In this document: piece after piece, positions 4,226 through 30,960 of the stretch
Numbering within the stretch: position 1 is the first letter of the stretch
Layout: each line of letters opens with the position of its first letter
From: Trichodesmium erythraeum IMS101
GTDB lineage: Bacteria > Cyanobacteriota > Cyanobacteriia > Cyanobacteriales > Microcoleaceae
NCBI RefSeq assembly: GCF_000014265.1
Contig: NC_008312.1
Coordinates: 2,430,001-2,462,000 of the forward strand
Reading direction: 5' to 3'
Length of the DNA stretch: 32,000 nucleotides
Notes under the pieces: model-generated
What the model was told of the DNA's origin: nothing
Databases searched by the model: none
The model's input: only the letters and a program-made list of their open reading frames with translations
Translations under genes and position numbers: made by a program

Positions 4226-4412
4226 AAATAAAGAACTTTAAAATATCATACCACTTTATAGCTAATTATCCTTGAAATCCAAGTAAAATCAATCAACGCC
4301 TTTGGTTAACTGAAAAAATGACTGACCAAATGGAGCAGCCTATAGGGCGACGCAGTAGAAGCAGGAAGTAAATCTGATAACATTACTAATTATAACATTT
4401 TATATCGGTTTT

Positions 4413-6308
4413 ATGAAGCAGAAAAAATTGTTAGACTCTAAATCTGATCAAACAAATGGTACAGTAGAAACCTTAACTGATAAGATAGAAGCTGTATCAA
4501 TTCAATCTGAGACAGCTTTGTTCAAGTCGAAAGGCAAAAAAAAGAAATTGACCTGGGTTGGTCTCCTAGTAGTTATTTTAGCAACAACTTTTGGCAGCCT
4601 AAAATTTCTCATCTATCGAAAGACTTCTCTCAAGCGAACCTCAGAAAGTTCTCTAGCGAATATCCTCTCTGTTCAAGCTACCCCCATAAAATTAGTCAAC
4701 TCCTACTCAGTTTCCCAAAGTTATACAGGAGTTGTAGAAGCCAAAAGAACAAGTGAACTTGGTTTTGAGCAATCAGGTTTACTTAAATTCATATATGTAG
4801 AAGAGGGTAAAAAAGTAGGCAAAGGAGAAGCGATCGCTCAACTGGATACCAGTCAAACCCAAGCCCAAAAGTCAGTATTAATAGCTCAGAAAGAAAGAGC
4901 GATCGCCACCCTCAAAGAACTGCAAACAGGACCCAGAGTAGAAGTCATTGCAGCCACCCGAGCATCCCTAGCTCAAGAAAAAGCAAAATTACAAGAATTG
5001 CAAACAGGACCCAGGGTAGAAGTAATTGCAGCCACCCGTGCATCCCTTACTCAAGAACAAGCCAAATTACAAGAACTACAAACAGGACCCAGAGTAGAAG
5101 TAATTGCAGCCACCCGTGCATCCCTTACTCAAGAACAAGCCAAATTACAAGAACTGCAAACGGGAACCCGCACCGAAGATATTGAAGCAGCTCGTTCAGT
5201 AGTTCTAGACTTAGAGGAACAAGTAGAATTAGCTCAACTTCGAGAAAAAAGACGTGAAGAACTTTATAAACAGGGAGCAATTTCTCAAGAACAACTAGAT
5301 GTTGCTTCTACTGAGACCGATACTCTCAATGCCAGACTGAAAAGAGGGCGGAGTGAACTAGAAAAATTACAAACAGGAACTCGCCGCGAACAAATAGAAG
5401 CTCAAAAAGCTAGAGTTCGTCAAGTGCAAAGTCAATTAGATGAACTGATAGCCGGAACTCGCCGCGAACAAATAGAAGTTCAAAAAGCTAGAGTTCGTCA
5501 AGTGCAAAGTCAGTTAGATGAACTGATAGCCGGAACTCGCCGCGAACAAATAGAAGCTCAAAAAGCTAGAGTCCGTCAAGTGCAAAGTCAATTAGATGAA
5601 CTTATTGCCGGAACTCGCTCCGAACAAATAGAAGCTCAAAAAGCAGAAGTTAAACGTTTCGAGGCACAAATTTCTGAAATTGATGTTGTTCTGAGAAAAA
5701 GTATTCTCTATGCGCCTTTTACTGGCACTATTTCTGTTCGCCATTTAGACGAGGGAGTTGTCGTTAATGCAACTCAAGCTGTTGTGCGTTTAGTCGAGGA
5801 TGGTGAAAGGAAAGTTCGGGTTGGGGTGCCGCCGACTCAAGCTAGTCGTTTGAGAATAGGTAGTTTGGAGGAAGTGAGGATAGCACAGAAAACTTTAAGT
5901 GCACAAGTGCTGTCAATTTTACCAGAGGTAGATTCTATGACTCGGACTCAAAGTGTAATTTTGGCACTACCTCAAGCTATAGCTCCAGGTACTATTGTCA
6001 AGTTAGAACTTAATCAAATTGAAACAGTGACAGGATATTGGTTGCCGACTTCTGCTTTGGTTTGGGGAGAGCGGGGGTTGTTGGCTTGTTTTGCTCTTGT
6101 CTCTCCTCAGAAATCAGATTTGGTGATACCTCCCTTAACTTATCAGACTGAAAAACGAATGGTTGAAGTTTTGCATACGGAGGGAGACCGGAGTCTGGTG
6201 CGAGGACTCTTAAAACCAGGAGAATTGGTTGTCACAACTGGAACTAACCAATTAGTTCCTGGTCAGTTAGTTCGCTATAGATTTTTTGGGCAGGAGAAAA
6301 ACCAATAA
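4413..6308 (+). CDS. HlyD-family efflux transporter periplasmic adaptor (membrane fusion protein) with expanded coiled coil
   Basis: 631-aa ORF with an N-terminal TM anchor (LTWVGLLVVILATTFGSLKFLIY). It has a lipoyl-like half (VGKGEAIAQLD ... LYAPFTGTIS). A very long run of GxRxExI-type helical units surrounds a GAISQEQLD hairpin-tip motif, followed by a C-terminal beta-barrel region. An RND pump gene lies downstream. Confidence 0.85.
   Translation: MKQKKLLDSKSDQTNGTVETLTDKIEAVSIQSETALFKSKGKKKKLTWVGLLVVILATTFGSLKFLIYRKTSLKRTSESSLANILSVQATPIKLVNSYSVSQSYTGVVEAKRTSELGFEQSGLLKFIYVEEGKKVGKGEAIAQLDTSQTQAQKSVLIAQKERAIATLKELQTGPRVEVIAATRASLAQEKAKLQELQTGPRVEVIAATRASLTQEQAKLQELQTGPRVEVIAATRASLTQEQAKLQELQTGTRTEDIEAARSVVLDLEEQVELAQLREKRREELYKQGAISQEQLDVASTETDTLNARLKRGRSELEKLQTGTRREQIEAQKARVRQVQSQLDELIAGTRREQIEVQKARVRQVQSQLDELIAGTRREQIEAQKARVRQVQSQLDELIAGTRSEQIEAQKAEVKRFEAQISEIDVVLRKSILYAPFTGTISVRHLDEGVVVNATQAVVRLVEDGERKVRVGVPPTQASRLRIGSLEEVRIAQKTLSAQVLSILPEVDSMTRTQSVILALPQAIAPGTIVKLELNQIETVTGYWLPTSALVWGERGLLACFALVSPQKSDLVIPPLTYQTEKRMVEVLHTEGDRSLVRGLLKPGELVVTTGTNQLVPGQLVRYRFFGQEKNQ
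4923..5156 (+). repeat. in-frame 78-bp (26-codon) tandem repeat x3, plus a diverged 4th unit to about 5234, inside the adaptor gene
   Basis: Units start at 4923, 5001 and 5079. Copies 2 and 3 differ at 2 of 78 nt, and copy 1 differs from copy 3 at about 7 of 78. Each encodes QTGPRVEVIAATRASL(A/T)QE(K/Q)AKLQEL. Confidence 0.9.
5376..5609 (+). repeat. second in-frame 78-bp (26-codon) tandem repeat x3, plus a diverged 4th unit from 5610, inside the adaptor gene
   Basis: Units start at 5376, 5454 and 5532, with 2-4 differences per 78 nt. Each encodes GTRREQIE(A/V)QKARVRQVQSQLDELIA. Confidence 0.9.
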
Positions 6309-6826
6309 CTAATAATATTGATGTCTGGATAATAAGTCAACACGGTTTAGATAATACCAAAAATATTATGATATGGAACCATTAAATGAGCTTTTCAGAT
6401 TACAGAAGCACAAAAACAATACTTAACGGATCATAAGTCATATTTTTTTTGTAGTAGGAATTGAGGGTCATCTCTTCTTAGGTTTTATAACAATTCCCAT
6501 GTATTAATTCTATCCCTGTGTCAATCTTTAGTTATTAAATAATTAACATAAAGGGAATAAATTTCTTACTTTTTTTAACTTAATCAATATGAATTATTAT
6601 TATCTTTGAGATAGTTTATAATGCAAATATACTAAATCCACTGCTATAATATTCTAATTTTCTAATCAAAAAAACTTGAAAAATTTTTGATAAATAGCAT
6701 TAATAATATTCCCTAAATATGAAGTTTAGTGATAACTATTAAAATAGACATAATCTAAATTATAACTGATAACTCATAATTAGTAAATTATAAATTATAA
6801 ATCATAACTCATAATTCATCTTTAAA

Positions 6827-9800
6827 ATGACTACTTTATTTTATCGAAACTTTCGATTATTAATACTAGCAATACTAATAATTGTAGCCTGGGGAATATC
6901 ATCATGTTTCACATTGCCACGACTAGAAGACCCAGAATTAGTTTCCCGTTTTGCCAGTATCACAACTTTTTGGCCAGGAGCTGATGCCCAACAAGTAGAA
7001 ACATTAATCACAGAGAAAATAGAAGCAAAACTATCTGAAATTGAAGAAATTGAAACCTATGATTCAACTTCTAGGGCGGGAAGTTCAATTATTAATATTG
7101 GACTATTAGAATCAGTTGAAGAAAGAAAAGCTGATACAGCTTGGTTAAGAATTAAAGAGCGATTAAATCAAGCCACAACTCAATTACCTGCTGGTACAAG
7201 TAAACCACGATTAGAGGAAGTTGAAGTTAAAGCTTATGCCATGATTACTGCTTTAACTTGGGAACAAGATACTGAGCCTAATTATGCAATTATCAATCGT
7301 TTATCTAAATTATTAAAAGATAAATTATTAGCATTGCCAGGAACACAAAAAGTTGCCAAATTTGGTATTCCTCAAGAAGAAATATTAGTAGAAATTAATC
7401 CTACTGATTTAGCTAGTCTTGGTCTGACCGCTCAACAATTATCAGCACAAATTCAACAAAGTGATGCCAAAGTTTCATCCGGTAAATTTCGGAGTCAAAA
7501 TAATGATTTACTCCTAGAAGTTGATTCAAATTTAGATTCCCTGAATAGGATTCGGAATATTCCAATTAGCTTTAGTGATAGAGGTCAATTTACTCGACTT
7601 GGTGACATTGCTAAAGTCAGAAAAACAATTGCTGAACCACCAAATGAACTTGCATTAATTAATGGTCATCCTGGTTCTGCTTTAGCTATATTTGTCGAAT
7701 CAGATTATCAAATAGACCTCTGGGCAAAATCAGCAGAATCAGCCATAGAAAAATTTCGCAAAGAACTAGGTATTGGTCTAAAAATTGAGATAATTTTTAA
7801 TCAAAGTAATTATATTCAAACTCGCTTAAAAAGTATGATTTGGAATCTATTAATGAGTGGCATACTGGTATTTTTGATGACAGTATTTTTAATGGGTTGG
7901 AAATCTGCAATTGTTGTTGGTTTGGTATTGCCTTTGTCAATTTGCATGGTTTTAGGGATGATGAGATTTCTCAATGTTCCTCTACATCAAATGTCAATAA
8001 CTGGATTAATTGTAGCTCTAGGATTATTAGTTGATGTGACAATTATTATTGTTGATCAAATTAGTAAAAGTATGGTTTCTGGATTAAAAGCTGAAACTGC
8101 TATTACTAAAGTAATTAATCATTTATTTCTGCCATTAACAGCATCAACTTTAACTACAGCTCTAGGGTTTTTATCAATGCTTTTAATCCCTGGTGAGCCA
8201 GGAGAATTTCTTGGTGGTCTTGGCATTAGTGTGATTTTATCTGTTATTTCTTCATTATTATTATCCCTGACTATAGGTTCTGGCTTAATAGGCAAACTAT
8301 ATCATATTTATTATCATCATAATAATTCCCAGAATACTCAACAAAATTTTTGGCAAACCGGATTTACAAATTCCTCTTTAACGAAACTTTACCAAGTTAG
8401 TCTACGAAGTATATTTAGCAATCCTTGGTTAGGAATATTATTAGGTTTAATTTTACCAATTACTGGTTTAATTCAAGTTAGGAATCTCCCTGAACAATTT
8501 TTTACTCCAGCATCCAGAAACCAGCTTCAAATAGAATTAGAATTACCTGCTTTAACCTCTATTGAAAAAACAAAAAATACGGCTATAAAAGTCAGAAACT
8601 TAATCTTAAAGCATCCAGAAATTCAGGAATTGCAATGGTTTGTAGGACGTAGTTCCCCTCGATATTACTACAACTTAAGAGCAACTAAACAGCCAGACTC
8701 CAATTATGCTCAAGGATTTTTACAATTAAATTCAATTGCTAACTCAGAATTAGTTAACAAACTCCAAGGCGAAGTTGATACTGCATTCCCTGGAGCTCAA
8801 GTCTTGATTCGACAATTAGAACAGGGGCCTCCCTTTGATGCACCAGTAGCAATCAGAATTTATGGTCCTAACTTAAAGCGTCTACAAGAATTAGGAGAAC
8901 AAGCCAGAAGCCTTTTAGCTCAAGTCCCTAAAGTCACTCACACCCGGGACACTTTAAGCGAAATTCGACCCCAACTACAACTACAACTAAATGAAGAAGA
9001 AGTTCGTTTAGCCCAATTAGATCATGCTAATCTTTCACAGCAGTTAGAGAGCTTACTGGAAGGGAATTTAGGAGGATCAATTATTGAAGATACTGAAGAA
9101 CTACCAGTGCGGGTGCGAGTATCGAATGCTCAACGGGGAGACATTAGCCAAATTACATCCTTAGACTTACAACCATTAGGTTCGAGTCTAAATCAAAATC
9201 GATTTAGTTCAACTGATACAATACCCCTGTCAGCTTTAGCAAAAGTAGAATTAAAGCCAGAATTTTCAGTTATTAGAAGAAGTAACGGCAGACGGGTAAA
9301 TTTAATTCAAGGTTTTATTGCTGCTGGGGTTTTACCTTCCGAGGTTCTCAAAGGTTGGCAACAAAGGTTAAATGATTCAAATTTTGAGTTACCATCCGGG
9401 TATTGGTTGGAAATTGCTGGAGAGTCAGAGAAACTAGGTGAGGCTAAAGCAGTTTTGCTTGCTACAGTGCCTCTTATATTTTTATTAGCAGTTTCAGTTT
9501 TGGTCTTATCCTTAAATTCTTTCCGAGCAACTGCCATTATTGGAATAGTTGCTATTTCTGCCATTGGTTTAGGATTTTTTAGTTTATGGTTATTTGGGTA
9601 TCCCTTGAGTTTTATGAGTCTGGTCGGTACATTTGGTTTAGTGGGAATTGCTATTAATGATTCAGTAGTAGTTTTGGCTGCTATCCTCCAAGACCGGGAA
9701 GCATGCACTGGTAACCGTCGAGCTACCCGTCAAGTTGTCATGGGTTCCACTCGTCATGTAGTTGCCACAACTTTAACTACAATGATCGGGTTTGTTCCTT

Positions 9801-11573: not shown

Positions 11574-12461
11574 TGTATTGAAAAAATAAATTATAAAATC
11601 TGAACCAAGTTATAAATTATAAGTTTTTTTGATAACAAAAACTTCAGTTTTTCTTAAAAAAAATCGCTTAAAAAGTATTGATCGAGAACATTTTTTTTTG
11701 ATTAATAATTGTTAGTTACTGAATCTAAATTATACCAATTTTATCAACTTAGGCTAAACTACTGATATTATACTAAAATATACAATAATTTCCTAAAACT
11801 ACCGACCGCGTCAAAGCTTTTATTTTTTAAAATCTTACTTTTAACTTTCTCCTTGGGATAGGATAAATGGGTGGATAAACGAATGACTATTGTGAAAAAG
11901 TATTAGTAAATTTTTTCTTTAAATAGTAAATTCTCTCTTAGATAAAGATGCCAGTTTTTTAGTTGCTATATTGTATGATTTTTACCTCTCAAAAAATGTC
12001 CTAAAACCTGACTTATAAAGTAAGTATTAGGATATTAAATTGCTTGTTAAACTTAACTTTAGAAATTTATACTAATTAAGTAAGTCGGAGTTTAAATCTG
12101 CCGCTATGTAACAACATATAAGTTGATTTTAAATAAACTGTATCAAGCATTTTGAATTCAGTATATAAATCTTAATACAGCCAAGTTTTTTTTAATGCCT
12201 ACCTACTTAGCAAAACTCATGCTATACTTAAATAGTACTTCAATTATTAAATTAATTAACAAAGACCAAATAAGTTTTTTTAATAATTATTAGCCAATTA
12301 GTATTAATCACTCTTATTTTTACCTACTAGTAGGAAATTAGTATACAATATTTATAGTTACTCCCCTACAAAAAAAATGTAGAGAAATTTTTAATAAATG
12401 GTATTATAGGCTCAGAAGTTTAATGTTAAATTAAAATTATTAAAGTTATATTTTTTTGTTT

Positions 12462-12896
12462 ATGGAAGATTACCAAGCAGCTTTTCTAGAACGCTATTAT
12501 GATACAAAAAAATTACATGAATCGGGAAGAAAAATTGCAGCCATGCATTTTGGAGGTATAACTATTGAGTGCTTATTAAAAGCAATGATTTTTGCTACTT
12601 TACCAAATAGTGCAACTAAAGAATGGAAAACATATAAAAATAATCCAGGGCATACTTTTACTAATCCAGGGCATGAATTACAAAAAGCAATAAAAAAACA
12701 TCCTAAACTTAAAAGATTAATTGACCACCAGCCCCATGTCCTAGAATGGTTAGATCAAGTTGAAAACCCAATAGGTCAAAATTTTATACATATACGTTAT
12801 TGCGCTATTGAAGCTGACAATATAAATTATGAAAGCTGGTTTAAAACATATACAAGGCTTATAGAATGGCTACAAAAACAAGCCACTATACTTTAA
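12462..12896 (+). CDS. small alpha-helical protein, HEPN-like (putative)
   Basis: The ORF-track start at 12456 is TTG; an ATG lies at 12462. The helical pattern AAMHFGGITIECLLKAMIF ... GHELQKAIKK ... FIHIRY resembles the HEPN (PF05168-type) consensus QA.E..LKA ... H.L..L ... Y...RY. The stop codon overlaps the Shine-Dalgarno sequence of the next gene. Confidence 0.5.
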   Translation: MEDYQAAFLERYYDTKKLHESGRKIAAMHFGGITIECLLKAMIFATLPNSATKEWKTYKNNPGHTFTNPGHELQKAIKKHPKLKRLIDHQPHVLEWLDQVENPIGQNFIHIRYCAIEADNINYESWFKTYTRLIEWLQKQATIL

Positions 12897-12901
12897 GGAG
12901 G
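12895..12901 (+). promoter_or_regulatory. Shine-Dalgarno AAGGAGG for the 909-aa gene, overlapping the upstream stop codon (translational coupling)
   Basis: In taAGGAGGttgaaATG the spacing to the ATG at 12907 is 5 nt. The TAA of the upstream ORF occupies 12894-12896. Confidence 0.6.
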
Positions 12902-12906
12902 TTGAA

Positions 12907-15636
12907 ATGGAAGAAACCTGGCAAGTACTACTAAAGCAAAAAATAGAAAATAAATACATTCAAAACCCTAACGCTAAAGAATGGGTTGATGTAAATTTTT
13001 CCACCTCAGGTTTGCTCAATTTAACTTTAGTTAGTAATAACTTTTTTGGTTTATCTATCCCTAAACGGAAAGAAGAAATCTCCAACTTGCTAAAATCTCA
13101 AGCGCCTCATTTATCTCCTGGGTTTCTTTCCTTATATACACCTCAAGAAGCTGAATCATTAAATATTTCACCTCCACAAATCTCTGATACACTCTCGCCC
13201 ATTGATTGGCAAGATTTAGCTAATCAGGCAGCAAACCCACAAGATCAACCTCAACTACCCCAGCAAGAACCCAGTACACCCAGAACAGTAACATTTTATT
13301 CTTTTAAAGGAGGAGTAGGTCGGACTACTGCATTAACTCATGTGGCTTCAATTTTAGCCATGCGAGGCCATAAAGTTGTAGCTATAGACTTAGATTTAGA
13401 AGCACCTGGGTTAACTACAGCATTTAAGCTTAAGCAACAGCCAAAATATGGAATAGTTGATTATTTCTACGAACGTTCCTACTTACCAGATGAAGTAGAC
13501 CCCAGTGTTTTAATTACAGAAATATTTGGTGAGGCAAAAATACCTAATGCTACAGGGAGAGTATTTGTTGTTCCTGCTGGATATCTTAGTCTTGATTATA
13601 TGTCTAAAGTTGGCGATCTTTATGCCACAACTGTTATAGATGGAAATCAAAATCTTTGGTCTATTTTTAAGCAGGAAATTCAGGAACAATTAAAACCAGA
13701 TTTTCTCTTAATTGACTCAAGAACTGGAATTAATCAATGGAGTGCTTTATCATTAATTCAAGCTGCTGATGAAGCAATTATTTTTCTTTTCCCTAACGAA
13801 CAAAACAAACAGGGAATGGAGTTAATACTAAAATCTCTTCAAAGTCTGAAAAATCTATCCATTAATTTTGTTTTTTCCCCTGTACCTGATGTAGCAAAAA
13901 GTGGTTTAGATAAAGTTAAAAAAATTTGGAATTTTTTGCTTGAAAGCATACAAAATCCAAAAGATGAAAAGTATGATACTGATGATGATGATGATGATGA
14001 TTCAAATACAACTAATGACATATCAGAAAATAACGATGAATTATTAGTAGTGCCTTACCTTGAAACAATTGCTTTAGCTGATAGCTATCCCATACCACAT
14101 ATACAGAATTACTATAGTAAAATTGCCAATCTAATTGATGCCAAAACTAATGAAATTAAACGCAGCAGTATTTTTAATACTAGTGAACAAAGATGGCAAA
14201 TTATTGAAAGTCTCGAGTTTGCTGAAGTAAATGCGGCTGACCAGAAGCAGGACCTAGGATTATTGTTTCAACGTACTACTGATTTTGACAAATTTTTAGA
14301 CGATACAACCTGTCTAATTAGAGGAAAAAAAGGAACAGGTAAAACTGCTCTATATTGGCTATTTTTACAACATCAAGAAGTCGCTCAAAAATTAGCTTAC
14401 AGAGGGTTAGATAATATTAATACTAAATTTGAATTTTTCTCAGGACACGGTAGATTTCAAAAAAGTCGTCCAACCCGTGATGAATTTCAATATATTCATC
14501 AAAAATTGCAGGAAAATAATGGGACATGGGAAGCTTTTTGGAGAGCTTATTTACTATTTAGATGTTATCAGGAAAGATTACTAAAATTTCCCAGAGGTAA
14601 GAAAGGAGAAAAGTTTAGTGAGTTAAAAAAAATCATAAATAATTTACCAAAAGATAGATGGGAGGCGCAATCAACAACTGAAGCTTTATTAGAATTATCT
14701 ACCAACTCTCAATTGATACTTACAGTCAAAGAAGCAATAGAGATTATTCTTAATCAAGAGGCGAAAAAAAATTCTAAAAAATACTGGTTTCTTTATGATG
14801 ACTTAGATGAAGATTTTCCAAAAGCAGAAGAATTAGGACAACAAGCATTAACTGGATTATTTCAATTAGTTCAGTCTTGTGATGCGAGTAGACTAACAGA
14901 AATTAGATTTAAAATTTTCTTGAGAGAAGATATTTGGAATCGTTTAATTTTTGATAATAAAAGTCATTTTACGGGAAGGGAGATTATTTTACAGTGGAGT
15001 TCAATAGACTTTTTACGTTTAGCCCTTCGTCAAGCAATACAATCTAAAAAATTCAAAGATTTAGTTGACCGAGTTTATCCTGTTGCTATTGACAGAATAG
15101 ATCAAGCTAGTGAAGAAGAGCTTGAGCAAGCATTAGAATTACTTTGGGGAAGTCGTCGCCGACGAGGAAATAGAGCGAAAAAAGTATCTCAATGGGTTTA
15201 TGAAAGATTAACAGACTTAAGTGGCACGACTTTTCCTCGGAGTTTAAGTATATTACTTAAAGAAGCAAAAGAAAAAGAATTAAGTAATAAAGGAAAGTCA
15301 TCAACTAAAATTCGTACAGACCGTCTCTTTCAAGGAAAATCTCTAGAATTAGGGTTAAAAAAAGCATCAGAAAAGCGATGTGAAGAAATTAAAGAGGAAT
15401 ATCCAAACTATATTAATTTCTTTGATTCTCTTAACGGAAAACTAGCTTTGTTAAAAAAAGAAGAATTGAAAGCAATATGGAAGGATTCGGCAGAGGATAT
15501 TGTCGGAAATTTTGAAGAATTTGCTTCTTTGTTAAGTGAAATAGGTATGATTGAATTTCGGGAGAAAGAAGAATGCTATAAATTTGCGGATATATATATT
15601 TATGGTTTTAATATGATTCGTAAAGGAACAATATAG
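12907..15636 (+). CDS. multidomain double P-loop NTPase: N-terminal unknown domain, KGGVGR-variant ParA/MinD-like (SIMIBI) module, acidic linker, GKT P-loop (STAND/AAA-like) module with helical C-terminus
   Basis: - Module 1: deviant Walker A FKGGVGRTT (aa 133-141), A' box DLDLEAPG (aa 161-168), Walker B FLLIDSRTG (aa 266-274).
- Linker: poly-Asp tract (aa 359-365).
- Module 2: Walker A GKKGTGKT (aa 473-480), Walker B YWFLYDDLDED (aa 626-636), then FKIFLREDIW and a roughly 250-aa helical C-terminal region. Confidence 0.75.
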   Translation: MEETWQVLLKQKIENKYIQNPNAKEWVDVNFSTSGLLNLTLVSNNFFGLSIPKRKEEISNLLKSQAPHLSPGFLSLYTPQEAESLNISPPQISDTLSPIDWQDLANQAANPQDQPQLPQQEPSTPRTVTFYSFKGGVGRTTALTHVASILAMRGHKVVAIDLDLEAPGLTTAFKLKQQPKYGIVDYFYERSYLPDEVDPSVLITEIFGEAKIPNATGRVFVVPAGYLSLDYMSKVGDLYATTVIDGNQNLWSIFKQEIQEQLKPDFLLIDSRTGINQWSALSLIQAADEAIIFLFPNEQNKQGMELILKSLQSLKNLSINFVFSPVPDVAKSGLDKVKKIWNFLLESIQNPKDEKYDTDDDDDDDSNTTNDISENNDELLVVPYLETIALADSYPIPHIQNYYSKIANLIDAKTNEIKRSSIFNTSEQRWQIIESLEFAEVNAADQKQDLGLLFQRTTDFDKFLDDTTCLIRGKKGTGKTALYWLFLQHQEVAQKLAYRGLDNINTKFEFFSGHGRFQKSRPTRDEFQYIHQKLQENNGTWEAFWRAYLLFRCYQERLLKFPRGKKGEKFSELKKIINNLPKDRWEAQSTTEALLELSTNSQLILTVKEAIEIILNQEAKKNSKKYWFLYDDLDEDFPKAEELGQQALTGLFQLVQSCDASRLTEIRFKIFLREDIWNRLIFDNKSHFTGREIILQWSSIDFLRLALRQAIQSKKFKDLVDRVYPVAIDRIDQASEEELEQALELLWGSRRRRGNRAKKVSQWVYERLTDLSGTTFPRSLSILLKEAKEKELSNKGKSSTKIRTDRLFQGKSLELGLKKASEKRCEEIKEEYPNYINFFDSLNGKLALLKKEELKAIWKDSAEDIVGNFEEFASLLSEIGMIEFREKEECYKFADIYIYGFNMIRKGTI
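13981..14001 (+). repeat. (GAT)7 trinucleotide microsatellite encoding D7 in the inter-module linker
   Basis: gatgatgatgatgatgatgat is read directly and is in frame (YDTDDDDDDDSN). Confidence 0.95.
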
Positions 15637-15823
15637 AAATTTGTAAGCAAGCACACAAAATTAATTACTCCTATATGTAAGATTGAACTTTTTATACTAT
15701 AAACTATCATTCAAAATAGAGTAGGTAAATAACAACTGTAATGGTACTTATTAAGAATAGAGTAGTTGAAAATGTTGAAAATATAGTATATCTAAATTAT
15801 AGCTTACTGAAAAAGCATTTTTA

Positions 15824-15997
15824 ATGAGTAAGAGACTCACTCCTAACCTCGACTGTAAAAAGAGAATTAGTATGGATATTTTGGTAAAAAAATATAGGTC
15901 GAAATGGGAAATTTATAGAGCAGTTATTCGATATATTTTTCCCGTAATTTTTTCTGTTATAAGAGCGCTAAAAATTCTAATAATTTTTAACTATTGA
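15824..15997 (+). CDS. possible small ORF (57 aa) with a basic N-terminus and hydrophobic C-terminus; speculative
   Basis: The ORF encodes MSKRLTPNLDCKKRISMDILVKKYRSKWEIYRAVIRYIFPVIFSVIRALKILIIFNY. It is below the ORF-track size cutoff, and a 57-codon open frame is somewhat unusual in stop-rich AT-rich DNA. It is on the same strand as the 909-aa gene and 187 bp downstream of it. No clear Shine-Dalgarno sequence is present. Confidence 0.2.
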   Translation: MSKRLTPNLDCKKRISMDILVKKYRSKWEIYRAVIRYIFPVIFSVIRALKILIIFNY

Positions 15998-16513
15998 GAT
16001 TGATTATTTTATTTAATAACAATTAATTAAAGAAAAAAAAGCACAGTAAGGATTTAGATATTTTTCTAAAATTGAAAATAAGTCGTTTAAATACTTAATA
16101 GCTCACCAATTATAAGATATTAATACTAACTTTTTTCAACCTTCAACAATTTAAGTAATTAACACAAAAGGAATATCATTTTTTGAAATTAATCCTCTCG
16201 AATTATGTAATTATTATCATGTTGTACAGACCTTGTATATAATATCCTTACCCTTATCAATAACAAAATAGAGTTTTTTTTTAATGAGTGCTCTAAATTC
16301 TGTTATGATTTGGGAAAAATACTAGTTTTTTTGATTCGGAAAACATTTTAGCCAATATCAGTCAGTGCTTTTATATTCAACAAGAAACTATGATGAAAAT
16401 TTATTAGACTTAATAAACATAGTTTAAAAAACTATTTTTTTTGACCAAAATTTTATCTGTATACACAGATATATATCTGCCATTCGTTGTGTAATTATAA
16501 TTAGTGAATTATC

Positions 16514-17381: not shown

Positions 17382-17475
17382 GATTCGGACCAGCGCGATT
17401 ACAACACCTAAACCTTGTCAGGACCGGAAGGTAGCAGCAACACGGGATGCTTGTAGTAGGCGTTGACTCCGGGTC
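17382..17475 (+). ncRNA. ffs: signal recognition particle RNA (4.5S/SRP RNA, small bacterial type)
   Basis: It contains GUCAGGACCGGAAGGUAGCAGC. This matches the universally conserved domain IV motif GUCAGGUCCGGAAGGAAGCAGC at 20 of 22 positions. The 5' GAUUCGGA pairs with the 3' UCCGGGUC to form an 8-bp closing helix. The length of about 94 nt is typical. Confidence 0.8.
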
Positions 17476-17514
17476 ACCCAACTAAAAGGAGCTCATAAGA
17501 TAGGATACATATAT

Positions 17515-26307: not shown

Positions 26308-27428
26308 TATATAGCAATCCTAAGTAGGTTGCGGCAAAATTTCATACTGAAAAAGTTTTGGGAAATTGAATATTTGACCATCCGCAAAAAACTTAAATAG
26401 CCACTTAACTACTTTAAAAGAACTGCAAAGATGATAAAAAGTAATACTGAAATTTTTGGTTTGTAACCAAATATCTTCAACAGGATTTTGCTCCGGAGCA
26501 TTGGGAGCAAATCTTGTACAATTTATCAACAATTCTTCTTCTGATAAGTATTGATTAATTGTCATTAAATATTCTCGAAATTCTTGAGAGTTATGGTAAG
26601 TTGCCCCATCCCAAAATATTGCCAATTTGTTGCCCGGTCTTTGCTTCTGCAAATATTTAATAAATTCAATAGTATTTTTAGTATTTCCACTCTCATATTC
26701 TTGCACAAGAAATTCCTTGGTTTTATAGTCTAAAGCTCCATAATAAGTCTGTCTTTCTTTTTCATTTTTAATTGCAATTTCTATTCTTTCATCTGTTTTT
26801 CCCCAAGCATAACCTAATATGTCTCCCCATAGAAGATGACATTCATCAATCATAAACACTGTAAGCTTTCCAGTTTCTATTTCTGGTTGCCATTTAGCTA
26901 AAAATTCCTCTATTTCTTTTCTTTTAACTTCTACTAATTCATCATTTTTAGCAGGATTCTTTTTTTGAGTTTTTTTCCAACTTATGCCCGCTTCTTTAAA
27001 CAAGTTATAGTAACTTTGATTAGACTCAAAAACCACATCATATTGCTCCTGTAAGTAGTTTTTTAAATCTGATAACCTAAGATAATCTTGTGCTCTCAAC
27101 CACTCAATTGTTTTCTCTTTTTCGACCGTTTTTAAGTAACCTTGTCTCCCTTGATACTGAAGCCTTAAACTTTCTACACCATGAAATAATGCTTGGTTTT
27201 TCCATTCACTAATAAAACTGTGAGAAACATTTAATAATTCTTTGACTTCATGGTAGGATTTTCCTGACAAGGTCATTTTTACGGCCAAGGCCCTTTTAAT
27301 TTCTTTAGACTCTTTTGTTTGATTAATAAAATCATTTAGTTTATCTATAATATTCATTTTTTGTCTTTTTCTTAGATCTGTTATTCTTACTATTATATCT
27401 GTTGCGACCAATATGGGATTGCTATATA
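26308..27428 (-). mobile_element. IS630-family insertion sequence (about 1.12 kb) with imperfect terminal inverted repeats and TA at both ends
   Basis: tatatagcaatcc at 26308-26320 is the exact inverse of ggattgctatata at 27416-27428. Partial complementarity extends about 17 nt further inward. The size, the single transposase ORF and the terminal TA fit IS630/Tc1-mariner elements. Confidence 0.8.
26320..27357 (-). CDS. IS630-family DDE transposase
   Basis: The ORF-track ORF starts at a TTG inside the terminal repeat (27411); the ATG at 27357 (MNIIDKL) is more likely. It has an N-terminal HTH region and the DDE triad context FMIDECHL, IFWDGATYHNS and APEQNPVEDIW. The last corresponds to the canonical IS630 SPELNPIE motif. 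The ORF appears intact. Confidence 0.85.
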   Translation of the reverse strand: MNIIDKLNDFINQTKESKEIKRALAVKMTLSGKSYHEVKELLNVSHSFISEWKNQALFHGVESLRLQYQGRQGYLKTVEKEKTIEWLRAQDYLRLSDLKNYLQEQYDVVFESNQSYYNLFKEAGISWKKTQKKNPAKNDELVEVKRKEIEEFLAKWQPEIETGKLTVFMIDECHLLWGDILGYAWGKTDERIEIAIKNEKERQTYYGALDYKTKEFLVQEYESGNTKNTIEFIKYLQKQRPGNKLAIFWDGATYHNSQEFREYLMTINQYLSEEELLINCTRFAPNAPEQNPVEDIWLQTKNFSITFYHLCSSFKVVKWLFKFFADGQIFNFPKLFQYEILPQPT

Positions 27429-27454
27429 GATATATTCTTATAAAAGACTAGATT

Positions 27455-27664
27455 TTGCCGAAAAAAAATAGTAAGCATTACCAGGTAAAATTACTCTAAA
27501 TTAATGAAAATATAATCCTAATACTATTACTGAGAAAAGCTAAAGTTTTTATCATCAATTTGCCGAAAAAAAATAGTAAGCATTACCAGGTAAAAGTACT
27601 CTAAATTAATGAAAATATAATCCTAATACTATTACTGAGAAAAGCTAAAGTTTTTATCATCAAA
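27455..27664. repeat. 105-bp direct duplication (x2) abutting the large array
   Basis: ttgccgaaaaaaaatagtaagcattaccaggtaaaa(t/g)tactctaaatt...attactgagaaaagctaaagtttttatcatcaa occurs at 27455 and again at 27560. The last 33 bp are shared with the junction of the 595-bp units. Confidence 0.85.
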
Positions 27665-30611
27665 TAGAACTTTGAGTATTCGAGAGTGGAACAACTTTTG
27701 TTGAGATATTTCTCAAGTATTATCAAACATTTTCCCAAAAGATAATCTTAGATTCAGATGTAATTTATCTACCAAACTTTACTAGAATATGCTGCGTTTT
27801 AGAAATCCCTTAGTCTCGAATTTAAGAAATTACTGATACTGAATAATTTTTATAGTTTAAATATCAGTAAAAAAAAATTTAAGTATGAAACATTACGGCT
27901 CAAATTTACGGCTCAAACAAGTCAGTATGTTTTGAGATTTATTTTCTTATTTATTGACTTAATTTAATCTTACTAATTACTCAATTTTTAGCTAAACTCT
28001 TATATTGAGTTTTTTTATCATTAAACTAGAATTTTTATCAAATTTAAAAACTTATTGATTTTTAGTGGTACTCAGCAGGATATAAAATTAATTTTTGAGA
28101 AATGCGGGTAGTCCTTTGACCTGCATTAGATAACTTAGCATTTATCAAATAATTACAGTTCACAACCAAAATACTTCTAAGTATCAAAAAAGTACAAAGT
28201 CAAACTTGAAATGTCAAAGATCAAGAATTACTGAGAAAAGCTAAAGTTTTTATCATCAAATAGAACTTTGAGTATTCGAGAGTGGAACAACTTTTGTTGA
28301 GATATTTCTCAAGTATTATCAAACATTTTCCCAAAAGATAATCTTAGATTCAGATGTAATTTATCTACCAAACTTTACTAGAATATGCTGCGTTTTAGAA
28401 ATCTCTTAGTCTCGAATTTAAGAAATTCCTGATACTGAATAATTTTTATAGTTTAAATATCAGAAAAAAAAATTTAAGTATGAAACATTACGGCTCAAAT
28501 TTACGGCTCAAACAAGTCAGTATGTTTTGAGATTTATTTTCTTATTTATTGACTTAATTTAATCTTACTAATTACTCAATTTTTAGCTAAACTCTTATAT
28601 TGAGTTTTTTTATCATTAAACTAGAATTTTTATCAAATTTAAAAACTTATTGATTTTTAGTGGTACTCAGCAGGATATAAAATTAATTTTTGAGAAATGC
28701 GGGTAGTCCTTTGACCTGTATTAGATAACTTAGCATTTATCAAATAATTACAGTTCACAACCAAAATACTTCTCAGTATCAAAAAAGTACAAAGTCAAAC
28801 TTGAAATGTCAAAGATCAAGAATTACTGAGAAAAGCTAAAGTTTTTATCATCAAATAGAACTTTGAGTATTCGAGAGTGGAAAAACTTTTGTTTAAATAT
28901 TTCTCAAGTATTATCAAACATTTTCCCAAAAGATAATCTTAGATTCAGATGTAATTTATCTACCAAACTTTACTAGAATATGCTGCGTTTTAGAAATCTC
29001 TTAGTCTCGAATTTAAGAAATTCCTGATACTGAATAATTTTTATAGTTTAAATATCAGAAAAAAAAATTTAAGTATGAAACATTACGGCTCAAATTTACG
29101 GCTCAAACAAGTCAGTATGTTTTGAGATTTATTTTCTTATTTATTGACTTAATTTAATCTTACTAATTACTCAATTTTTAGCTAAACTCTTATATTGAGT
29201 TTTTTTGATCATTAAACTAGAATTTTTATCAAATTTAAAAACTTATTGATTTTTAGTGGTACTCAGCAGGATATAAAATTAATTTTTGAGAAATGCGGGT
29301 AGTCCTTTGACCTGTATTAGATAACTTAGCATTTATCAAATAATTACAGTTCACAACCAAAATACTTCTAAGTATCAAAAAAGTACAAAGTCAAACTTGA
29401 AATGTCAAAGATCAAGAATTACTGAGAAAAGCTAAAGTTTTTATCATCAAATAGAACTTTGAGTATTCGAGAGTGGAAAAACTTTTGTTTAAATATTTCT
29501 CAAGTATTATCAAACATTTTCCCAAAAGATAATCTTAGATTCAGATGTAATTTATCTACCAAACTTTACTAGAATATGCTGCGTTTTAGAAATCCCTTAG
29601 TCTCGAATTTAAGAAATTCCTGATACTCAATAATTTTTATAGTTTAAATATCAGAAAAAAAAATTTAAGTATGAAACATTACGGCTCAAATTTACGGCTC
29701 AAACAAGTCAGTATGTTTTGAGATTTATTTTCTTATTTATTGACTTAATTTAATCTTACTAATTACTCAATTTTTAGCTAAACTCTTATATTGAGTTTTT
29801 TTATCATTAAACTAGAATTTTTATCAAATTTAAAAACTTATTGATTTTTAGTGGTACTCAGCAGGATATAAAATTAATTTTTGAGAAATGCGGGTAGTCC
29901 TTTGACCTGCATTAGATAACTTAGCATTTATCAAATAATTACAGTTCACAACCAAAATACTTCTAAGTATCAAAAAAGTACAAAGTCAAACTTGAAATGT
30001 CAAAGACAAAGAATTACTGAGAAAAGCTAAAGTTTTTATCATCAAATAGAACTTTGAGTATTCGAGAGTGGAACAACTTTTGTTTAAATATTTCTCAAGT
30101 ATTATCAAACATTTTCCCAAAAGATAATCTTAGATTCAGATGTAATTTATCTACCAAACTTTACTAGAATAGGCTGCGTTTTAGAAATCCCTTAGTCTCG
30201 AATTTAAGAAATTCCTGATACTGAATAATTTTTATAGTTTAAATATCAGTAAAAAAATATTTAAGTATGAAACATTACGGCTCAAATTTACGGCTCAAAC
30301 AAGTCAGTATGTTTTGAGATTTATTTTCTTATTTATTGACTTAGTTTAATCTTACTAATTACTCAATTTTTAGCTAAACTCTTATATTGAGTTTTTTTTA
30401 TCATAAACTAGAATTTTTATCAAATTTAAAAACTTATTGATTTTTAGTGGTACTCAGCAGGATATAAAATTAATTTTTGAGAAATGCGGGTAGTCCTTTG
30501 ACCTGTATTAGATAACTTAGCATTTATCAAATAATTACAGTTCACAACCAAAATACTTCTAAGTATCAAAAAAGTACAAAGTCAAACTTGAAATGTCAAA
30601 GATAAAGAATT
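27631..30611. repeat. tandem array of a 595/596-bp unit x5.0 (about 2.98 kb), near-identical copies, non-coding
   Basis: The landmark attactgagaaaagctaaag recurs at 27631, 28227, 28822, 29418 and 30013, and homology ends near 30611. Copies differ by only a handful of SNPs or 1-nt indels. The ORF track shows no ORF of 60 aa or more on either strand between 27411 and 31403. Confidence 0.95.
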
Positions 30612-30960
30612 GATGTATAATCAAACATCAAGTTATAAAATAGCTGTAAAAAAATCAGATTAAAAAAGAGATAAGAGGAGATAGGGATACTAATGCTTAT
30701 TGTTTTACCTTCTTCTCGTATTACGTATCCGATGCTATGAATACTCAATTTGTGCCCTTGATGAATCAACCTATTAAAATCTGAATTTGGCCAAACTCAA
30801 AATTATTTTTTTTAGTTAATAGTTAGGCGATCGCTATTTAGGTGTTAAATACTAGGTTTTAGGTTTTAGTTCTAAAAATTAATAAGTTGATAATATCTTA
30901 CTACCAAATCTATTGATTTTGGCCCGTTAAATCTCGATAACTTTTTACTTCAATCATTTT

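Follow-up and report, generated by a model that had tools for sequence, protein, structure and literature searches.

A 32,000-nucleotide stretch of the Trichodesmium erythraeum IMS101 chromosome (NC_008312.1, forward-strand positions 2,430,001 to 2,462,000; here called the window) carries a two-gene cassette encoding a 144-residue HEPN-fold protein, PF05168/HEPN-T-like, and a 909-residue multidomain nucleoside triphosphatase (NTPase). The small gene lies at 12462..12896 (+), within an open reading frame (ORF) extending from 12456, and the large gene at 12907..15636 (+), as placed from the ORF list, the starts of homologs, and domain profiles. Profile matches identify the pair as the cyanobacterial, gene-fused branch of a HEPN/KGGVGR-ATPase/Sll1717-ATPase cassette that PADLOC lists as the candidate system PDC-M28. 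The original prediction, an annotation drawn from the DNA letters, had recognized no named system in this pairing, but all three PDC-M28 models in PADLOC-DB match it. PDC-M28A (PDLC04558) aligns to residues 2-65 only of the small protein (E value, 1.2e-7; 30.3 bits), and PDC-M28B (PDLC04559) and PDC-M28C (PDLC04561) align to residues 110-317 (6.8e-42) and 425-907 (3.5e-27) of the large protein.

The PDC set comprises 145 candidate systems taken from genes embedded in BREX, DISARM, and type I restriction-modification loci (bioRxiv 10.1101/2024.01.29.577857), among them PDC-M28 as CAS_00115, a three-family cassette FAM_01482>>FAM_02546>>FAM_01036 counted 121 times (Payne et al., bioRxiv 10.1101/2024.01.29.577857). 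Typical members, with three genes, are homologs of the window pair and share its module order A, B, C. They differ in being encoded as three separate genes (A>>B>>C), whereas in the window B and C are fused in one 909-residue protein that also carries a BolA-like N-terminal domain. Model scores are likewise far weaker in the window, with A only partial, than at typical PDC-M28 loci, where A scores 1e-21 (74-76 bits, full length), B 1e-82 to 2e-96, and C 4e-113 to 3e-137. A three-gene PADLOC rule would probably overlook the fused form. The cassette is therefore already catalogued, as a PADLOC candidate, as NCBIfam domain models, and as a HEPN-ATPase dyad described in 2013; the variant features here are the B-C fusion, the BolA-like cap, and an insertion in the HEPN protein. 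Nothing relevant was found in the literature on PDC-M28, Sll1717, or KGGVGR by name.

Organization of the operon

The start of the small gene was set at the ATG at 12462, giving 144 residues, because 30 of 30 aligned homologs open with a MEDYQ/MEDYE-like sequence; the product is 100% identical to ABG50875.1. A Shine-Dalgarno sequence, AAGGAGG, was read at 12895-12901 (+), overlapping the TAA stop of the small gene (12894-12896) and separated by a 5-nt spacer from the ATG of the large gene at 12907 (junction, TTTAAGGAGGTTGAAATG). Similarly tight junctions, with gaps of 6-16 nt or overlaps of 4 nt, recur in relatives. The pair is a translationally coupled two-gene operon. Both ORFs, the overlap of stop codon and Shine-Dalgarno sequence, and the motifs quoted in the original prediction were all located in the sequence at computed positions.

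The prediction had also described the cassette as isolated by about 880 bp of AT-rich, ORF-poor DNA on each side. That composition is real: the flanks, at 11574-12455 and 15637-16513, have a guanine-plus-cytosine (GC) content of 23-24%, and neither holds an ORF of at least 60 residues (the longest, at 15824-15997, has 57). As a sign of isolation the flanks are uninformative, because the window has further stretches without ORFs, one of 741 bp and one of about 4.6 kb that follows 27411, and Okeania relatives have downstream spacers of only about 50-250 bp followed by unchanged genes. We also considered the flanks as evidence for an island, a regulatory region, or a mobile element and rejected them, since they show no Rfam match, tRNA, bounding repeats, or excess of promoter- or terminator-like sites.

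The small HEPN-fold protein

An AlphaFold2 (AF2) model of the small protein, built with 30 homologs, has a predicted local distance difference test score (pLDDT) of 94.4 and helices at residues 4-21, 24-44, 73-101, and 120-143. In a Foldseek search of the PDB, ranks 1 to 6 are all HEPN structures (1wol, 2q00 in two chains, 2hsb, 1o3u, and 1ufb), with probabilities of 0.82-0.97, template modeling (TM) scores of 0.50-0.65, and weak E values of 0.27-1.0. The link to HEPN was drawn through structure and relatives because direct sequence searches with the window protein failed: it has no Pfam or NCBIfam match, PF05168 included, and its family profile gave chance-level matches only against PDB sequences. 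A phmmer search of the PDB with the HEPN protein of a relative, locus L023, returned no match, and a BFVD search with the small-protein model returned nothing meaningful. Partner proteins in relatives do reach the PF05168 gathering cutoff of 22 bits (L023, 28.1 bits; L025, 25.8 bits; L030, 22.1 bits), and hhalign joins the cyanobacterial small-protein profile to the Pfam-positive HEPN protein of L025 with a probability of 90% (E value, 1.7e-6). The modeled structure and these profile links indicate a HEPN fold with a noncanonical site for the small protein, bearing out the fold first proposed from the helix pattern E..LK / H.L..L / RY, the residues of which are conserved across the family.

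Conservation in the small protein is concentrated at R11, E36, L39-K40, H71, and R112-Y113, which are retained family-wide. The helix-2 motif IECLLKA (residues 35-41; 12564..12584 (+)) contributes E36, L39, and K40, invariant both in the cyanobacterial alignment and in the small proteins of the distant loci L023, L025, L026, L028, and L030. A 28-residue insertion specific to cyanobacteria follows at residues 45-72 (12594..12677 (+)); it holds a duplicated PGH motif (PGHTxxNPGH) ending at H71 and is nonhelical in the AF2 model, with two short bridge residues. Within the cyanobacterial alignment W55, H64, T65, N68, P69, and H71 are invariant. Distant relatives lack the insertion and keep the His (LHNL, HRLP, HGLR), so that H71 is invariant family-wide. 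In the helix-4 motif HIRYCAIE (12789..12812 (+)), R112-Y113 is invariant, and E117 at +5 occupies the canonical position of the HEPN His. The invariant constellation of R-Y, His, and E..LK suggests that an active or binding site has been maintained.

The best structural matches of the small protein are HEPN-T/PF05168 domains (1o3u, 2hsb, 1wol, and 1ufb). In HEPN-T, the motif His has often given way to Asp, and activity may draw on a His located elsewhere (PMC3710099 Table 1). The E..LK / H / R-Y pattern is in accord with this description: the motif position is acidic, and a His lies at another site. The window protein differs from HEPN-T in having no Pfam HEPN match and in carrying the 28-residue His-rich insertion. 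It is also set apart from MNT-HEPN modules, in which the partner is a minimal nucleotidyltransferase, by its double-NTPase partner; no NTP_transf_2 (minimal nucleotidyltransferase) match was found by Pfam in the pair or its flanks.

Residues 22-29 of the cyanobacterial small proteins (12525-12548) form a near-invariant G-R-K-[IV]-A-A-M-H at the start of helix 2. Its R23 and H29 were considered as a HEPN motif of the form Rx5H and rejected, since the motif sits at helix 2 and the His is Tyr in distant relatives. Together with the His-rich insertion, these residues may form a clade-specific site.

Domain architecture of the large protein

The large protein consists, in order, of a probable BolA-like N-terminal domain, the KGGVGR module, an acidic linker, the Sll1717 ATPase, and a winged-helix-like end; conservation was judged on an alignment of 14 homologs with 26-60% identity. 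Two distinct NTPase modules in one chain had been predicted, along with two possibly corresponding NCBIfam names, and both models score above their cutoffs exactly as named, NF047398 at residues 125-312 and NF047389 at residues 438-894.

The N-terminal domain (residues 1-105; 12907..13221 (+)) has its core motif, LVSNNFFGLSIPKRKEEISNLL, at 13027-13092 and the residue pattern VSxxFxGLxxxxRxxxxxxL…LxTPxEA. Pfam BolA (PF01722) matches residues 37-66 below threshold (12.3 bits against a cutoff of 25.7; E value, 0.22). Among 10 divergent homologs, sub-threshold BolA is the best match in six and within the top three in one, always in the same register (E values, 0.0018-0.2; best score, 18.9 bits), and several orthologs carry the COG-based Joint Genome Institute name "BcsQ/stress-induced morphogen." R54, E81, and W101 are kept down to 26% identity. 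The domain is probably BolA-like. Mapping with hidden Markov models (HMMs) of the modules found it in cyanobacterial, Chloroflexota, and other fused forms and in none of the proviral split forms.

The KGGVGR-type MinD/ParA (SIMIBI) module (residues 125-312; 13279..13842 (+)) matches NF047398, "KGGVGR-motif variant AAA ATPase," at 176.4 bits (cutoff, 90) and Pfam AAA_31 at 1.3e-11. Its motifs are KGGVGRTT (residues 134-141; 13306-13329 (+)), DLDLEAPG (161-168; 13387-13410 (+)), and LLIDSRTG (267-274; 13705-13728 (+)), and YSxKGGxGR, DxDxEAP, and DxRxG are invariant in 14 of 14 aligned homologs. PDB sequence matches of the large protein are to MinD/ParA only, around the P-loop. The module shares with the housekeeping proteins MinD, ParA, Soj, and BcsQ the SIMIBI fold, the signature Lys of KGG, DxD, and DSxxG. 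It departs from them at the P-loop Lys, which is Arg throughout the family, and housekeeping equivalog models score only 24-33 bits on the large protein against thresholds of 158-508 (minD_bact, 30.8 against 212.9; ParA_partition, 31.3 against 180). No minC/E, parB, or bcs genes were found near the pair. An acidic, low-complexity linker, DEKYDTDDDDDDDSNTTNDISENND (13963..14037 (+)), joins the two NTPase modules and varies in length and sequence in the alignments.

The second module, an Sll1717-family P-loop ATPase (residues 438-894; 14218..15588 (+)), matches NF047389, "P-loop ATPase, Sll1717 family," at 145.9 bits (cutoff, 75) over profile positions 1-432 of 454. It contains a Walker A motif, GKKGTGKT (residues 473-480; 14323-14346 (+)), a Walker B motif, WFLYDDLDED (627-636; 14785-14814 (+)), and the sequence KIFLREDIW (14911-14937 (+)); GxxGxGK, YDxLD, and LRxD are invariant. 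Weak Pfam matches are to NACHT (3.7e-4; 20.8 against 26.7 bits), ORC-CDC6-like (0.017), and AAA_16 (0.03), and Foldseek matches, obtained from a poor model and with probabilities of at most 0.21, are to 2qen, ORC subunits, Dark, and 2fna. The C-terminal 90 residues or so (15364..15633 (+)), helical with a winged-helix-like end of H-H-E-E-H topology, are the only confidently modeled part of this half (pLDDT, 84-95). Their low-probability Foldseek matches are to the winged-helix domains of cullin (WHB), MarR, and Zur, and G880, Y897, and G900 are invariant. From these matches we infer that the Sll1717 half is STAND/ORC-like with a C-terminal winged helix.

The 3' end of the large gene is also repeated in some relatives. 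In Dapis, Okeania, and a cyanobacterial metagenome-assembled genome (L015), one to three extra degenerate tandem copies of the last 90 codons or so lie downstream, with 58-72% amino acid identity (L010, 8792-9794; L015, 7375-8425; L008, 8767-8952). They could reflect slippage during gene decay or cassette-like alternative C termini.

Distribution and genomic context of relatives

A word-indexed search returned 1332 matches to the large protein, and an exhaustive search of representative proteins gave 232 clusters (50% identity) with E values of at most 1e-30. Many of these clusters are full-length fused proteins with 27-47% identity, one of them from Chloroflexota. The small gene lies directly upstream of the large gene in 15 of the 15 cyanobacterial loci first sampled; the same holds in Calothrix, Dolichospermum, Microcoleus, and Microcystis, and in relatives with 27-33% identity at L023, L025, L026 (as an uncalled ORF), L028, and L030. 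It is also upstream in 11 IMG/VR proviral loci. The expectation that homologs of the large protein would accompany the small gene and lie near defense genes was thus borne out in its first part at every locus examined. As to the second part, several distant relatives lie near defense genes; in cyanobacteria the neighbors are mostly housekeeping genes.

At L025, the cassette stands between brxC and pglX in a BREX locus. At L028 it is found among Dam/DpnII, Gp49-HTH, HicA, and C5-methyltransferase/HNH genes, representing two restriction-modification systems and toxin-antitoxin genes. The L030 copy is carried by a Nostoc plasmid, where its neighbors are hsdR and a recombinase gene. PDC-M28 was itself found by embedding in defense loci, and the relatives at L025 (BREX) and L030 (hsdR) are so embedded or adjacent, whereas the window copy is not. 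Among cyanobacteria, the Dolichospermum cassette lies beside restriction-modification remnants, a PIN toxin-antitoxin pair, and IS66; elsewhere it follows groESL in Calothrix, lies between ileS and ridA/rpoC1 in Microcystis, and is near rpoZ in Microcoleus. An IMG/VR scan found 24 proviral loci, with 7 integrases, terminases, and resolvases among the neighbors, in a sample that is biased to mobile-element contexts by construction.

Several architectures were mapped with the module HMMs. In the split form seen in IMG/VR, the small protein is followed by a KGGVGR protein of 436-540 residues and an Sll1717 protein of 481-496 residues, with strong PDC-M28A/B/C scores (three-gene loci L040, L042, L043, L045, L056, and L057). 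Other forms are fused without the BolA-like domain, join the KGGVGR module to other C-terminal regions, or fuse it to TIR. The TIR fusion, on Sinorhizobium chiapasense plasmid pSchITTGS70c (L031, 4989-7193), is a 734-residue "TIR domain-containing protein" with an N-terminal KGGVGR module (HMM E value, 1.2e-37; tblastn, 31.7% identity over query residues 127-316). Its surroundings, to a distance of about 5 kb, include two further genes for TIR-domain proteins and one for a UvrD-helicase-domain protein. The variant MinD/ParA module is thus found with TIR effectors as well.

Lateral spread, descent, and decay

The large protein has 81-83% identity between Nostoc and Microcoleus over about 900 residues and 74% between Trichodesmium and Nostoc. 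Averaged over alignment columns, identity is 78% in the large protein and 75% in the small one. A synonymous-site test with a syntenic control led us to reject extreme purifying selection as the explanation for the 81-85% identity between orders. At four-fold degenerate sites, the copies from Trichodesmium/Okeania, Calothrix, Dolichospermum, and Microcoleus show an identity of 0.57-0.67, against a saturation expectation of 0.32-0.39 (z = 7-12), and four-fold sites in the Planktothrix and Spirulina copies are near saturation. In the control, four syntenic genes compared between Trichodesmium and Microcoleus gave a pooled four-fold identity of 0.33 against 0.25 expected (z = 2.8). Similarity ranks of PilM follow the species tree, with no named Nostocales among the 120 best PilM matches, whereas the next-best named matches of the large protein after Okeania are Nostocales and its ranks depart from the species tree. 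The chromosomal site of the cassette also differs between genera. Because the synonymous sites of the cassette are far from saturated and those of the syntenic control genes are near saturation, we conclude from these comparisons that it spread laterally among filamentous cyanobacteria long after the lineages split.

Within the Trichodesmium lineage the history appears different. The synonymous divergence (dS) of the pair relative to Okeania, 0.24-0.34, is about that of its nearest neighbors, 0.22-0.45, and therefore points to vertical descent within Trichodesmium, Okeania, and Dapis. The Trichodesmium copy is chromosomal and has been vertically inherited since the common ancestor with Okeania and Dapis, and the ancestor that the copy of this lineage shares with the Nostocales and Microcoleus copies is much younger than that of the organisms themselves. 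Relative to Okeania, the small gene has a ratio of nonsynonymous to synonymous divergence (dN/dS) of 0.48-0.58 and the large gene one of 0.35-0.45, compared with 0.12-0.37 for the neighbors, and at L010 and L015 the genes are interrupted or internally deleted. Decayed copies, the raised dN/dS, and the loss of the Sll1717 half in Microcystis mark the cassette, as far as these sequences indicate, as dispensable.

The Microcystis loci (L019-L021, about 4400-7800) have their own arrangement. There the small HEPN gene precedes a 393-residue BolA-like/KGGVGR protein that has no Sll1717 half, and GmrSD_N (DUF262), HEPN_RiboL-PSP, and RidA genes stand immediately downstream in its place. The arrangement suggests that another nuclease/HEPN pair has replaced the module.

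These results bear on the proposal that the cyanobacterial branch has been domesticated for positioning or division control (MinD/ParA-like) or for stress or redox regulation (BolA-like), the defense-like relatives being a separate branch. Such a role would account for the very high amino acid conservation, the housekeeping neighbors and stable local synteny, the host-like composition, the restriction of close orthologs to chromosomes, and a BolA-like domain that is present in fused forms and absent from proviral split forms. The high identity, however, comes largely from recent lateral spread and not from extreme constraint, the chromosomal site varies between genera, copies are pseudogenized or truncated, and dN/dS exceeds that of the neighbors. 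The ParA/MinD equivalog scores, moreover, fall far below threshold without an adjacent minC/E or parB, and no paper on Sll1717 was found in the library searched. We regard a domesticated function as quite unlikely.

Proposed mechanism and competing explanations

On present comparisons the pair is a real cassette and a candidate conflict system, a good subject for experiments rather than a surprise, for which the mechanism is the part that we infer. We lean, with guarded confidence, toward an NTP-gated (nucleoside triphosphate-gated) conflict module of the abortive-infection or toxin-antitoxin kind. In such a module, the Sll1717 ATPase, STAND/ORC-like and with intact Walker A and Walker B motifs, would be the nucleotide switch, and the C-terminal winged helix, perhaps with the BolA-like N-terminal domain, would read a nucleic acid or other trigger. 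The MinD/ParA-like module would probably bind nucleotide and dimerize rather than turn nucleotide over, and would hold or position the HEPN partner; little or no turnover is expected because the Walker A Lys-to-Arg change is invariant. Upon triggering, the HEPN subunit would cleave or sequester RNA, leading to growth arrest, with R112-Y113, H71, E36, and K40 as its candidate site.

A number of observations count against this reading. The parts have been cast as sensor, switch, and effector by analogy, and the designation of PDC-M28 as a defense candidate rests on guilt by embedding only (bioRxiv 10.1101/2024.01.29.577857). No BREX, DISARM, or type I restriction-modification genes lie beside the window pair, the neighbors of which are an RND efflux pump, DUF2157, LigT, a YCII protein, and the signal recognition particle (SRP) RNA; cyanobacterial neighbors in general are mostly housekeeping genes, groESL, ileS, and rpoZ among them, and the proviral contexts carry the sampling bias noted above. 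GC content and GC at third codon positions (GC3) of the pair match the host genome, and Trichodesmium, Okeania, and Dapis have kept the same synteny downstream of it. Among PLSDB plasmids the small protein has no match and the large protein a single full-length match at 30% identity, so that the close orthologue is on no plasmid. The AF2 model of the Sll1717 half is poor (mean pLDDT, 59.5, from 22 sequences, all at least 68% identical). No sampled relative has a His after the Arg in an Rx4-6H motif, the +5 residue being an invariant Glu in cyanobacteria; RNase activity of the HEPN subunit is uncertain because the canonical catalytic His is absent across the whole family. Finally, one study regards the MinD/ParA-like domains of conflict systems, which may or may not include the KGGVGR type, as inactive effector domains and not as sensors (PMC7159879).

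That study, by Kaur et al. in 2020, dealt with NTP-dependent conflict systems of multicellular bacteria, a kind enriched in cyanobacteria, and described in them MinD/ParA-like domains that are predicted to lack activity, some joined to AP-ATPases (PMC7159879). The window protein is similar in joining a MinD/ParA module with a compromised P-loop to a putatively STAND/AP-ATPase-like module. The systems of that study, by contrast, are of the vWA-MoxR or ternary type, have effector-associated domains, and are described with no HEPN partner (PMC7159879), and the window pair has none of those components. The classing of such domains as effectors, including AP-ATPase-attached ones (PMC7159879), suggests a reversal of roles, in which the MinD/ParA-like module would be the effector, for example as a dominant-negative block of division or DNA partition, and the HEPN protein a noncatalytic sensor of RNA or nucleotide, or a regulator. 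The invariant Walker A Lys-to-Arg change and the joining of the KGGVGR module to other C-terminal domains elsewhere, TIR for instance, are in keeping with this, as is a HEPN protein without the canonical His, given that HEPN domains lacking the motif may be noncatalytic RNA binders (PMC3710099). The TIR fusions suggest, on the other side, that the KGGVGR module goes along with effectors and is not itself the effector, and the invariant R-Y, His, and E..LK resemble a maintained active or binding site. AbiV, too, lacks Rx4-6H (PMC3710099 Table 1) and is a HEPN-family RNase according to the title of its PDB entry, which appears in the Foldseek match list. A reversal of roles seems to us very unlikely.

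A different precedent comes from Anantharaman et al. (2013), who described a dyad of a HEPN protein (MAE_18760 family) and a ParA/Soj-like SIMIBI ATPase as a proposed toxin-antitoxin system with HEPN as the toxin (PMC3710099). As in the window, a small HEPN gene stands beside a co-oriented ParA/Soj-like gene; the prototype came from Microcystis, which also carries an ortholog of the window pair. Unlike the window pair, the dyad was described without a second (Sll1717) ATPase or a BolA-like domain. The MAE_18760 family is tabulated as keeping Rx4-6H (PMC3710099), whereas the window family lacks the His, and the two may not be the same family.

By extension of the 2013 model for HEPN and ParA/Soj dyads (PMC3710099), the pair could be a selfish toxin-antitoxin (addiction) module without a dedicated antiviral role, the HEPN toxin being held by a ParA/Soj-like antitoxin through nucleotide-dependent conformational change or phosphorylation. 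A tight, translationally coupled two-gene unit that spreads laterally and yet persists at housekeeping sites, leaves decayed copies, and has RelB/PIN, PIN_3, HicA, and Gp49/HTH genes nearby at several loci would suit such a module. Yet a 900-residue "antitoxin" with a second, STAND-like ATPase and a winged helix far exceeds what neutralization needs, and members of the family are embedded in BREX and restriction-modification loci. The gene order, with HEPN in front, also departs from that of MNT-HEPN modules. Conservation of Rx4-6H in the 2013 MAE_18760 family (PMC3710099) and its lack in the window family, possibly a different one, further separate the cases. We consider a purely selfish module unlikely, and keep to the NTP-gated conflict module as our working interpretation.

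A stronger form of that interpretation, which we put forward tentatively as a minority possibility, is that cyanobacteria may have, in the fused form, a functional system of immunity or abortive infection with a new type of mechanism. In it, a STAND/ORC-like ATPase would gate a nucleotide-binding but hydrolysis-impaired MinD/ParA-like module and a His-variant HEPN protein, with a block of division or partition or noncanonical RNA cleavage as the output, and a recent lateral sweep would have carried it through filamentous cyanobacteria, including the ocean nitrogen fixer Trichodesmium. If functional, the module would be among the few defense or conflict modules common, at 70-85% identity, to bloom-forming and nitrogen-fixing cyanobacteria. 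Its carriers include Trichodesmium, Nostoc, Dolichospermum, Microcoleus, Planktothrix, and Microcystis, in which phage-host biology is poorly known. The family combines Arg-P-loop MinD/ParA-like, BolA-like, and His-variant HEPN domains, each with a putative role in immunity. The synonymous sites, for their part, provide a concrete example of a chromosomal cassette that has recently spread laterally between orders of cyanobacteria.

Other features of the window

The bacterial small SRP RNA (RF00169) was found at 17382-17478 (+), between the YCII-domain gene and the next ORF, at 59.2 bits (gathering cutoff, 40). Upstream of the cassette, two arrays of a 78-bp (26-codon) tandem repeat, at 4915-5165 and 5376-5644, lie within an HlyD-like membrane-fusion gene (4413-6308) and are 92-95% identical.

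A larger array occupies 27454-30700, directly after a DDE_3/HTH_33 transposase ORF (26320-27411 (-)) and preceded by a tandem repeat of two 105-bp units. It consists of five head-to-tail copies of a unit of about 595/596 bp that are 97-100% identical. No ORF of at least 50 residues was found over copies 1-4, and a 57-residue ORF at 30596-30769 overlaps the divergent copy 5. By its sequence, this is a long noncoding tandem array.

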